This document shows, in pieces, positions 40,047 through 41,423 of a DNA stretch of 64,000 nucleotides (positions are counted from its first letter, which is position 1; each line of letters opens with the position of its first letter). This DNA comes from Clostridiales bacterium. Lineage in GTDB: Bacteria; Bacillota; Clostridia; Christensenellales; UBA1242. The position numbers and the translations under genes are program-made. The notes beneath the pieces were generated by a model that was not told where the DNA came from, did no database searches, and saw only the letters and a list, made by a program, of their open reading frames with translations. Location: the NCBI GenBank assembly GCA_003524095.1, contig DOEE01000003.1, positions 160,785 to 224,784 on the forward strand, written 5' to 3'.

Positions 40047-40286
40047 ATGTTGTATTATTTTGGCGGAATTGTCGCATATTACATGTTATATTCATTGTGT
40101 GCACTTATTTTTAAACACAAAGTAGGATTTGTGGTATCTATAATATTTATGACTGTTGCGGGAATATGTTCGGCTGTTATGTCTAGTTCTTTTGTAACTT
40201 TGGTTGGTGCGATTGTTGGTGGATTATTGGTTGGATTTATCAAAAAAATTCAAATCAGAAGCCATAAAGATAGTGTAGGCCAATAG
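40047..40286 (+). CDS. small hypothetical membrane protein (79 aa)
   Basis: GGGAGA RBS. Two hydrophobic helices. Confidence 0.5.
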   Translation: MLYYFGGIVAYYMLYSLCALIFKHKVGFVVSIIFMTVAGICSAVMSSSFVTLVGAIVGGLLVGFIKKIQIRSHKDSVGQ

Positions 40287-40311
40287 TTTTTTAAAAAATT
40301 AAAAAAAATAA

Positions 40312-40339
40312 TTGAAAAATTGAGATGACTAATCATAAT
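40312..40339 (+). promoter_or_regulatory. candidate promoter TTGAAA-16-CATAAT upstream of tRNA-like unit S1
   Basis: -35 at 40312-40317 and -10 at 40334-40339. Lies just after the stop of the small membrane-protein gene. Confidence 0.35.
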
Positions 40340-40412
40340 GACTCGCATTGTTGCTCTGCAACAATTGTCGGGTGGCAGTGAAACTGACGGGGTCCCGACT
40401 ACACTCAACCGT

Positions 40413-40476
40413 AGGTTGGGAGTTCCAAGCAAGAATTGCTTGACAAGCATGAAATGCTTGGAGTCTCTTAAGTGCA
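40413..40476 (+). repeat. inverted tRNA-Arg-derived segment S1: variable loop/T-arm/acceptor 3-prime strand interrupted in the T-loop by two 17-nt hairpins
   Basis: aggttgggagttc [caagcaaGAAttgcttg a caagcatGAAatgcttg] gagtctcttaagtgca, versus tRNA sense aggttgggagttc|gagtctcttagggtgca. Confidence 0.6.
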
Positions 40477-40529
40477 AACAAAAAAGCAAGCCATGAGGCT
40501 TGCAGTTTTTTGGTGCACCCAAGGACTCG
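40462..40529. repeat. direct repeat copy 1 (about 87 percent identical to 40641-40710): tRNA-like tail plus terminator plus tRNA-Arg 3-prime end
   Basis: Manual alignment of agtctcttaagtgcaaacaaaaaagcaagccatgaggcttgcagttttttggtgcacccaaggactcg with copy 2 gives 7 substitutions and 2 single-nt indels. Confidence 0.8.
40486..40511. terminator. bidirectional terminator hairpin (copy 1)
   Basis: gcaagcc-atga-ggcttgc with A6 upstream and T6 downstream. Confidence 0.7.
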
Positions 40530-40569
40530 TCAATATGAGCGAAGCGAAAATTTGTCGGAGTGAGAGTGC
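40511..40569 (-). pseudogene. degenerate, internally deleted tRNA-Arg copy (59 nt) retaining acceptor ends and CCA
   Basis: Reverse complement gcactct-cactccgacaaattttcgcttcgctcatattgacgagtcc-ttgggtgc-a-cca. The 5-prime 7 nt match the acceptor of the real tRNA-Arg, and the same terminator follows. Confidence 0.5.
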
Positions 40570-40594
40570 TTGCACTCGGGAAGAACGACGACTA

Positions 40595-40653
40595 CCAAGT
40601 TCGAAAGATGTCAAGAGACATCTAAAAGCCGAAAGGCTTTTGTCTCTTAGGGT
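40595..40653 (+). repeat. inverted tRNA-Arg-derived segment S2 with two different hairpins at the T-loop position
   Basis: ccaagttcg..[agatgtc-aaga-gacatct][aaaagcc-gaaa-ggctttt] gtctcttagggt. The last 12 nt are identical to tRNA-Arg sense positions 58-69. Confidence 0.55.
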
Positions 40654-40710
40654 AAAACAAAAAAGCAAGCCAAGTGGCTTGCAGTTTTTTGGTGCACCCT
40701 AAGAGACTCG
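40641..40710. repeat. direct repeat copy 2, overlapping the true 3-prime end of tRNA-Arg
   Basis: tgtctcttagggtaaaacaaaaaagcaagccaagtggcttgcagttttttggtgcaccctaagagactcg. Also an extended palindrome (gtctcttagggt ... accctaagagac) around the terminator. Confidence 0.8.
40665..40690. terminator. bidirectional terminator hairpin (copy 2), terminator of tRNA-Arg
   Basis: gcaagcc-aagt-ggcttgc with A6 upstream and T6 downstream. Confidence 0.75.
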
Positions 40711-40766
40711 AACTCCCAACCTTTGGTTCCGTAGACCAACGCTCTATCCAATTGAGCTAAGAGTGC
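40690..40766 (-). tRNA. tRNA-Arg (anticodon ACG), 77 nt with encoded CCA
   Basis: Reverse complement gcactct-ta-gctc-aattggata-gagc-g-ttggt-CTACGGA-accaa-aggtt-gggag-ttcgagt-ctctt-agggtgc-a-cca. Confidence 0.9.
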
Positions 40767-40841
40767 TTGTTTATTTCACCCGTATATTTTAGTCCAATTA
40801 GACTTGTTTGTCAATAATTTTTGTTTAAATTGCTAATATTT

Positions 40842-41423
40842 CTATTTGGTATATATTTTTTCACTTAGTAATATATCAAAATAATTAATAAGTTCAGACT
40901 TGTCATATGTCTTTGTGGATTCAAGCCAACTTAGACCCAAGTTGGTAATTCCTCCTGCCAAAAAGTTAATTATTATATCTGGTGGCAATTTAAATTTTTC
41001 TTTGTACTGGTTTTTGCTTGTTAGATATCTAATGCTTCGGTCTAGAGTGTTTAAAATTAGTCCCATAATCTTGTCTCTACTATTATTTTTGATAATTAAC
41101 AAAAACTTTTCGCGGTTTTCTTCCACAAAATCTATGACCTTTGAAACGAGTGACATGTACATTTCTTTTGGGGTGTTGTGCTTTTCTTTTTCAACGGTTG
41201 CATTAAACATATCTTCTTGTATTTGGTCAATTGCAAAAGAAAGAAGATTTTCTTTGTTATCAAAATGGTTATAAAATGTTGCTCTATGCACCATGGCTTT
41301 GTTACAGATATCTATTACTGTTATTTTTTCATAAGGCTCAACTTCTAGTAAGTCAAAAAACGCCTTGCAAAGCAATGTCCTTGTCCTTATTATTCTCAAA
41401 TCTTCTTTGTATGAATTTTTCAT
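40842..41423 (-). CDS. TetR/AcrR family transcriptional regulator
   Basis: N-terminal HTH ITVIDICNKAMVHRATFYNHFDNKENLL. Confidence 0.85.
   Translation of the reverse strand: MKNSYKEDLRIIRTRTLLCKAFFDLLEVEPYEKITVIDICNKAMVHRATFYNHFDNKENLLSFAIDQIQEDMFNATVEKEKHNTPKEMYMSLVSKVIDFVEENREKFLLIIKNNSRDKIMGLILNTLDRSIRYLTSKNQYKEKFKLPPDIIINFLAGGITNLGLSWLESTKTYDKSELINYFDILLSEKIYTK

Follow-up and report, generated by a model that had tools for sequence, protein, structure and literature searches.

A probable array of tRNA-linked repeats behind tRNA-Arg(ACG) in an uncultured human-gut Clostridia bacterium

A 64-kb stretch of DNA (the window) from an uncultured, AT-rich human-gut Clostridia bacterium carries, directly behind a tRNA-Arg(ACG) gene, a short array of structured units, each with a bidirectional terminator of its own, four to five hairpins and a segment that repeats the tRNA 3′ half in inverted orientation. 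By analogy, and with a probability of roughly 60%, this locus represents an array of the type described in Escherichia coli as tRNA-linked repeats (TLRs; Stenum et al. 2021, PMC8144298), apparently arisen independently of the E. coli elements. [quoted passage not shown] The same source summarises the RtT RNA, or rttR, of the tyrT-tyrV locus (Egan & Landy 1978; Rudd 1999). The Clostridia array shares this layout: its units start at 40689, directly downstream of the tRNA gene and in the same orientation, with the direct copies of the tRNA 3′ end on the tRNA strand. Such a copy closes the repeat, with caveats for the distal unit and for one related species (MAG092), and the number and length of the units fit the pattern of one to five repeats of about 150–180 bp.

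The tRNA-Arg(ACG) gene lies on the minus strand at 40690–40766 with its CCA end encoded (ARAGORN; Rfam RF00005, 63 bits), and the array extends from it toward lower coordinates, first unit B (40511–40689) and then the distal unit A (40340–40510, or 40340–40479 without its terminator). Unit B, read on the minus strand, is a complete repeat of 179 nt, from the base after the tRNA CCA to a pseudo-CCA. Each unit carries a terminator of the same design, GCAAGCC-AAGT-GGCTTGC in T2 (40659–40690; stem-loop 40665–40682) and GCAAGCC-ATGA-GGCTTGC in T1 (40480–40510; stem-loop 40486–40503), and both score as intrinsic terminators on both strands because the hairpin stands between an A-run and a T-run. The motif GCAAGCC-N4-GGCTTGC occurs exactly twice at the locus, with 0.04 occurrences expected from shuffles, and the two hairpins lie within a 63-nt direct repeat of 87% identity at a spacing of 179 bp. 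In the window itself the divergence between units A and B keeps Tandem Repeats Finder (TRF) from reporting the 179-bp period; strains in which two units of one type occur yield periods of 179 bp (×2.3 at 96%) and 183 bp (×2.3 at 96%).

The direct copy within unit B is a pseudo tRNA 3′ end, CGAGTCCTTGGGTGCACCA (40511–40529, minus strand), which runs for 19 nt from the T-loop to CCA and departs from the genuine tRNA sequence CGAGTCTCTTAGGGTGCACCA by two 1-nt deletions, its last 10 nt being identical. The distal unit alone lacks such a 19-nt copy through CCA and retains only the hexamer CGAGTC. The inverted copies lie on the plus strand in three segments. Specifically, AACCGTAGGTTGGGAGTTC (40407–40425) corresponds to the anticodon-stem 3′ strand, variable loop and T-stem 5′ strand with a 17/19 match; GAGTCTCTTAAGTGCA (40461–40476, within a matching stretch at 40458–40476) to the 3′ part of the T-loop, the T-stem and the acceptor 3′ strand; and GTCTCTTAGGGT (40642–40653) to the T-stem 3′ strand and acceptor 3′ strand with a 12/12 match, so that the tRNA strand is here antisense to the tRNA 3′ half. 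Their local alignment scores are 28, 23 and 24, respectively, where 2000 dinucleotide shuffles averaged 14.6 and reached 24 at most; the pseudo 3′ end scores 28, a value reached by 0/2000 shuffles. In unit B, 10 nt at 40563–40572 additionally match the tRNA 5′ end and leader.

Unit A begins with GACTCG, which on the tRNA strand is the T-loop hexamer CGAGTC, and continues with two hairpins (40347–40399), ATTGTTGC-TCT-GCAACAAT and GTCGGG...CAG-TGAAA-CTG...CCCGAC; the first of these has a constant stem and a loop of TCT or GGA depending on the copy. The inverted tRNA copy follows, its first segment (40407–40425) also able to fold as the hairpin CAACC-GTA-GGTTG, and is split at the T-loop by the pair H1, CAAGCAA-GAA-TTGCTTG (40426–40442), and H2, CAAGCAT-GAA-ATGCTTG (40444–40460), which together form an 18-bp palindromic unit repeated 1.9 times (TRF; 40426–40460). 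The core of unit B (40532–40604) consists of a weak hairpin at 40532–40552, a branched element GTCG...GAGTG-CTTG-CACTC...CGAC at 40554–40592 and the segment AAGTTCGA at 40597–40604, beyond which stand the hairpins h3, AGATGTC-AAGA-GACATCT (40606–40623), and h4, AAAAGCC-GAAA-GGCTTTT (40624–40641), which occupy 40606–40641 directly before the inverted copy. On the plus strand both units present the same order of elements: ACTCG, TTGTCGG, CGACTAC, AGTTC, two hairpins, GTCTCTTA and the terminator. A and B diverge between these common elements; they are old paralogues rather than the products of a recent duplication.

Much of this anatomy had been proposed in a sequence-only reading of the same DNA, and most of it withstands measurement: the recurrence at about 179 bp, the bidirectional terminator in each unit, the hairpin pairs that split the two tRNA-like segments (S1 in unit A, S2 in unit B), the trailer antisense to the tRNA T-arm and acceptor with 12 perfect nucleotides in S2, and the derivation of the modules from tRNA-Arg. 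The modules are also non-random, conserved and structured. Two descriptions hold in part. Of the tRNA or tRNA remnant assigned to every unit, the genuine tRNA-Arg stands, and the middle one is reduced to the 19-nt 3′ end and the 10-nt 5′ piece, with no recognisable cloverleaf found by ARAGORN or Rfam on either strand of the repeated units. Likewise, the three inverted copies bear out the resemblance of S1 and S2 to the tRNA 3′ half, except for the left half of S2, AAGTTCGA, which offers only a T-loop-like match of 7–8 nt.

On the tRNA strand, unit B folds with a minimum free energy (MFE) of −55.5 kcal/mol (z = −4.8) into a structure in which a closing helix formed by ACCCUAAGAGAC and GUCCUUGGGU encloses the hairpins and leaves a GCACCA tail free, the antisense segment being paired with the pseudo 3′ end. 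Inner A units fold likewise, with a closing helix and a free CCA tail. When the whole region is folded on this strand, the MFE structure nests the trailer onto the tRNA 3′ half (z = −11). The same closing arrangement characterises RtT: both the Rfam RtT consensus and the MFE fold of the 171-nt rttR pair the inverted copy with the pseudo 3′ end and leave CACCACCA free.

Comparison with E. coli K-12 tyrT (L149, NC_000913 1285700–1287600) extends the correspondence. TRF detects there a period of 178 bp (×3.1) that overlaps the last 19 nt of tyrV, and the tRNA-Tyr T-arm has a 22-nt inverted counterpart, 86% complementary, in every tyrT/RtT unit as well as in the tyrT-tyrV spacer (L149 1108–1129, 1286–1307, 1464–1485 and 1761–1782); the TLR summary in PMC8144298 names the direct 18–19 bp copy only. 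RtT and the Clostridia array share tandem units that follow a tRNA gene immediately and on its strand, a unit length of 178 bp versus 179–183 bp, few units per locus, unit ends made of about 19 nt of the tRNA 3′ end including CCA, and an inverted T-arm copy that pairs with the pseudo 3′ end as a closing helix with a free CCA tail, degenerate in MAG092. They differ in phylum and in tRNA, and share neither sequence nor covariance-model similarity. Moreover, the array has two diverged unit types, a bidirectional intrinsic terminator in every unit, and an inverted tRNA copy of greater length (up to 35 nt), interrupted at the T-loop by a pair of hairpins, and it lacks a conserved tpr-like open reading frame (ORF). 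The likeness is one of design, not of homology, because the Rfam RtT model does not match: RF00391, with a gathering score of 45 bits, is absent from the eight Rfam matches at E ≤ 10 on either strand of 40200–40850, and the E. coli RtT units, as a positive control, score 133–137 bits against it. The sequence-only reading had regarded the locus as explained by no annotated feature and did not name the TLR/RtT class, whose design it matches.

The TLRs of the E. coli rRNA operons offer a second point of comparison. According to the account in PMC8144298, those of rrnA, rrnB and rrnD are the small RNAs (sRNAs) RrA, RrB and RrF, located between terminators T1 and T2; the RNA of 173 nt derives from T1 read-through and has its ends 3 nt past the real and the repeated 3′-end sequences, and these sRNAs bind Hfq and CsrA via GGA motifs. 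In rrnB (L150 246–319 and 413–442), a repeat of the 5S 3′ end plus 17 nt lies 168 bp downstream. The long stem of the rrnB T1 terminator (35-nt arms, 80% complementary) takes in the final 12 nt of 5S, and the 23-nt inverted repeat that surrounds T2 in the window is arranged alike. Both rrn TLRs and the array place a module between two terminators behind a stable-RNA gene, repeat its 3′ end (at 150–170 bp spacing in rrn) and incorporate the stable-RNA 3′ end in the extended stem of the first terminator. Unlike the array, rrn TLRs follow 5S rRNA, comprise a single module and carry Hfq/CsrA GGA motifs, to which nothing comparable is evident in the array. A functional RNA from a tRNA 3′ trailer, as would be proposed here, has a parallel in 3′ETS-leuZ (cited in PMC8144298), which as described there is a short unstructured sponge that ends at the operon terminator and, unlike the array, has no 3′-end copy, repeats or internal terminators.

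Contigs with an identical TetR gene beside the locus, together with those retrieved by pattern scans, place the array in three related species and reveal reshuffling: one to three units per locus, each of 179–183 bp, in six arrangements, with unit B present zero, one or two times across strains. Written toward the tRNA, these are A-tRNA (L004), A-B-tRNA (the window), A-B-B-tRNA (L001), A-B-A-tRNA (L140, from the metagenome scan), B-tail-A-A-tRNA in a sister species (L135/L006; TetR 90% identical) and at least two B units followed by the tRNA in a third species (MAG092; L134 and L136, on two contigs; TetR 72%). The tRNA-Arg sequence is identical in all three array-bearing species, unit A is about 97% conserved in the sister species, and unit B remains alignable with MAG092 despite a TetR identity of only 72%. 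In a more distant relative (L143, L144; TetR 64%), the tRNA-Arg differs at 11 positions, and its flank is plain, with ordinary hairpins and neither direct nor inverted tRNA copies. The comparison of relatives suggested by the sequence-only reading thus separates three species with the array from one without it.

Gene order around the locus also varies. In L143/L144 (3000–5300), TetR is followed directly by rubrerythrin and the tRNA-Arg lies upstream of TetR in opposite orientation; compared with the window, the tRNA-Arg gene, alone or together with its array, has moved within an otherwise conserved gene neighbourhood. It adjoins TetR only where the TetR homologue is at least 90% identical; contigs with TetR of 69–72% end inside the tRNA gene, and those with TetR of 63–68% show no tRNA-Arg near TetR. 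Both tRNA flanks vary between species. In the sister species (L135 5640–5900, reverse; L006 4278–5168), an Xre-type helix-turn-helix (HTH) gene of 79 aa and a 182-aa gene lie between rubrerythrin and the array, and these genes reduce a B unit to its last hairpin. The L135 array adjoins the 3′ end of the HTH gene, the flanking gene of MAG092 is divergent, and MAG092 (L134 385–1092) has a 235-aa gene between tRNA-Arg and TetR that is absent from the window. Five independent short-read contigs stop within the array (L003, L005, L007) or in the middle of tRNA-Arg (L132 4690–4740, L133 4160–4205); the species of L133 has a TetR of 69% identity and a variant tRNA, and its contig ends in tRNA-Arg before any array. 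Evidently, the direct and inverted tRNA copies break short-read assemblies at the tRNA gene.

Substitutions among the units respect their secondary structure. They were counted within each type, on 10 distinct units from three closely related species; a MAFFT alignment of A with B was left unused because it puts the hairpins out of register. Among six distinct A-type copies, 15/171 columns vary, 12 of them unpaired, two forming one compensatory terminator pair and one a wobble change (U-A to U-G). Among four distinct B-type copies, 37/183 columns vary: 28 are unpaired, six make up three compensatory pairs, of which two belong to h3 and one to the terminator, one is a wobble change and the remaining two affect hairpin Ha where its stem is weak and mismatched. 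All well-formed stems stay intact in both types. In the terminator stem, the compensatory change is from C-G to T-A, seen in other strains and species. In MAG092, two of the compensatory pairs belong to h3, and a C-to-T change in h4 preserves pairing, as G-U, on the plus strand only. Additionally, the array has 44–49% GC, in contrast to 15–25% in neighbouring intergenic DNA. Random decay of a local duplication, named in the sequence-only reading as the outcome that would overturn it, is contradicted because of the compensatory changes, the avoidance of stems by substitutions and this GC island.

Several observations weigh against a TLR-type array whose product is made on the tRNA strand. The constraint sample is small, the resemblance to RtT is architectural only, and every unit contains an apparently efficient terminator, so a module RNA on the tRNA strand would be a minor read-through product. 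The two changes that are wobble only, in H2 of L135 and in h4 of MAG092, retain pairing on the plus strand and not on the tRNA strand, and most units fold 0–8 kcal/mol better on the plus strand. Furthermore, the pseudo 3′ end of MAG092 has decayed, with only the last 7 nt identical and a closing helix of 4 bp, and the inverted copy there retains a 13-nt perfect match to the genuine tRNA. Because the pseudo 3′ end is decayed and the inverted copy perfect, the RtT-like closing helix is perhaps not the selected feature; what is retained may instead be the ability to pair, on either strand, with the sequence of the real tRNA.

The same strand preferences lend themselves to an unlikely but still sizeable alternative, in which the array encodes a plus-strand sRNA family. 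Here unit A would be transcribed from a promoter-like TTGAAA-16-CATAAT (40312–40339, plus strand, 10/12 positions) to T1 as an RNA of about 165 nt that mimics the tRNA 3′ half with a T-loop expanded by two hairpins, and B would be a paralogue. Unit A is indeed bracketed by a promoter-like site and a terminator, its plus-strand fold has z = −3.7, and the GAAA and CUUG loops read as stable RNA tetraloops on that strand. Some RNA over unit A is likely in any case, as the 3′ untranslated region (UTR) of a convergent 79-aa ORF, since no terminator intervenes before T1. Against an sRNA family stands the distribution of the promoter: TTGAAA-16-CATAAT is seen only in contigs of the window's species, scans of L135 and MAG092 found no promoter-like site upstream of the array on the plus strand, and the inner units, all B units included, have no promoter and are located behind a terminator. 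Promoter-like hexamers are also common in this AT-rich DNA, with 6 found in the region against 3.1 expected, and the closing helix of inner A units contains two G-U pairs on the tRNA strand that become C-A mismatches on the plus strand. The discrete 165-nt plus-strand RNA put forward in the sequence-only reading is therefore not supported in that form, since it relies on a promoter-like site confined to one species. The substitution pattern does not settle which strand matters.

A by-product of neutral processes is improbable. On this account, a duplicated tRNA 3′ flank, possibly a decayed tandem tRNA-Arg, would have been shaped by slippage and unequal exchange, with the hairpins persisting as terminator copies or self-correcting palindromes. 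Copy number varies freely, single-unit strains included, the pseudo 3′ end decays in MAG092, unit B retains the 10-nt tRNA 5′-end piece in the right order, and E. coli TLRs likewise occupy tRNA loci without demonstrated function. H1, H2 and the terminator share the arm motif CAAGC..GCTTG, and h4 and the terminator share AAGCC..GGCTT; H1 and H2 are, in addition, an 18-bp tandem duplicate. Neutrality fits poorly, on the other hand, with substitutions that avoid stems, with four compensatory pair changes, with a GC content far above that of neutral intergenic DNA and with the persistence of both unit types across species whose TetR proteins are 72–90% identical.

Integrases that target tRNA genes leave direct repeats of the tRNA 3′ end that start in the T-loop, and the direct copies could accordingly be leftover att sites with the modules as element remnants, a reading to which the differing distal flanks between species and the Xre-type HTH gene that truncates a B unit in L135 would lend some colour. 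Such integration and excision scars, also raised in the sequence-only reading, are very improbable: the repeats are merely 179–183 bp apart, the same two unit types recur in varying orders as from homologous unequal exchange, no integrase or mobile-element gene lies within 6 kb of the array, phage, plasmid and viral contigs give no match (unit-end pattern 0; phage and plasmid BLAST none), the inverted copies, compensatory changes and GC island are left unexplained, and the shared break of the direct copies is most simply a CGAGTC duplication junction.

For the preferred TLR-type reading, a plausible history starts from that junction. The T-loop hexamer CGAGTC recurs at the far end of unit A (40340–40345, plus strand GACTCG). 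The array would have begun as a tandem duplication joined at this hexamer, which the original 3′ flank would have carried at its distal end as the T-loop does; the direct copies would start at the same T-loop position because of this junction. The 63-bp junction repeats would then promote unequal crossing-over and thereby generate the copy-number and order variants. Transcription presumably starts from a strong promoter-like TTGACA-17-TAAAAT (40786–40814, minus strand, 11/12 consensus positions), which is also found in sister species L135. Polymerase passing T2 is predicted to yield a tRNA-module precursor, whose trailer can, in the modelled folds, pair with either the tRNA 3′ half or the pseudo 3′ end. 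By analogy with the E. coli rrn modules, tRNA 3′-end maturation enzymes would act at the real and pseudo 3′ ends and release a structured RNA of about 180 nt, and the next terminator would stop the remaining transcription. Firmicutes are generally not known to carry RNase E, so processing of an array RNA would need other enzymes. The stacked bidirectional terminators may moreover shield the tRNA gene, itself strongly transcribed, from the convergent gene upstream, whose mRNA would end in unit A.

A more ambitious extension, for which the odds are low, treats the TLR architecture as a convergent functional device in which the A and B modules are selected structured RNAs whose mimicry of tRNA ends would report on, or compete for, factors that process or bind the tRNA-Arg 3′ end. 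Under such a scheme the modules would originate either from read-through release or as antisense-neutralising elements against convergent transcription, and the anti-tRNA segment beside the terminator, perfect even where the pseudo 3′ end has decayed, would be the key contact.

The array is closely tied to its locus. A species scan with a unit-specific pattern over one genome for each of 185,579 species gave true matches only at the tRNA-Arg loci of two further species, plus one chance match (L137, Anaerolineae), and a metagenome scan gave L140 as its sole true match, with L138, L139 and L141 as chance matches beside transposase-like genes. The unit patterns, which include tRNA-Arg-derived bases, occur nowhere else in the 64-kb window, where the tRNA-Ser has a plain terminator and no array; dispersed intergenic repeats of the MITE, REP or BOX kind were set aside, as matches in the window and the species scan are confined to tRNA-Arg loci. 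A looser pattern, ACTCG..TTGTCGG..CGACYAC, proved unspecific, with 120 chance matches in GC-rich viral contigs (L012–L131), and was discarded. In Rfam, both at gathering thresholds and at E ≤ 10, the tRNA is the only credible match, and weak matches (miRNA families, Clostridiales-1, snoR17) rest on the terminator palindromes. The Clostridiales-1 RNA motif (RF01699), which likewise comes from gut Clostridiales, matches weakly at 40463–40619 (plus strand); at 20.4 bits against a gathering score of 48, with T1 taken as the first helix and many non-canonical pairs, it was judged a chance match. An integron-like or CRISPR-like array was rejected, with no integrase or cas gene and the wrong unit structure. 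A coding role was rejected as well: a 52-aa plus-strand ORF (40338–40496) starts in a CATAATG that inner A units lack, and the remaining ORFs of the array use TTG or GTG starts.

The neighbourhood within 6 kb comprises a TetR regulator, rubrerythrin, an ABC transporter, a methyltransferase and CysRS. The convergent 79-aa ORF (40047–40286) encodes a hydrophobic product in the window, and its position is held by other genes in the sister species. The arms that H1, H2 and h4 share with the terminator suggest that these inner hairpins originated by serial copying of the terminator hairpin; they could alternatively be palindromic protein-binding sites, a TetR gene being adjacent. The sequence GCGAAGC, found in unit B at 40532–40552, is a very stable DNA mini-hairpin, and H1, H2 and Hc close with G-N-A triloops, a loop type favoured where single-stranded DNA forms hairpins.

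The TLRs found reported in the literature belong to enterobacteria only, and by analogy the Clostridia array would be an instance outside them, in a distant phylum and apparently convergent. Its distinctive features relative to known TLRs are the bidirectional terminator of every unit, the two unit types and the inverted tRNA copy split at the T-loop; it is genuine and statistically well supported, reveals no new mechanism and stands as a second, independent instance of a TLR-type element. At the practical level, such repeats break short-read assemblies exactly at the tRNA gene. An independent array that combines compensatory changes, a GC island and reshuffling among strains suggests either that the same mutational route recurs at the 3′ ends of stable RNAs or that such arrangements are under selection.

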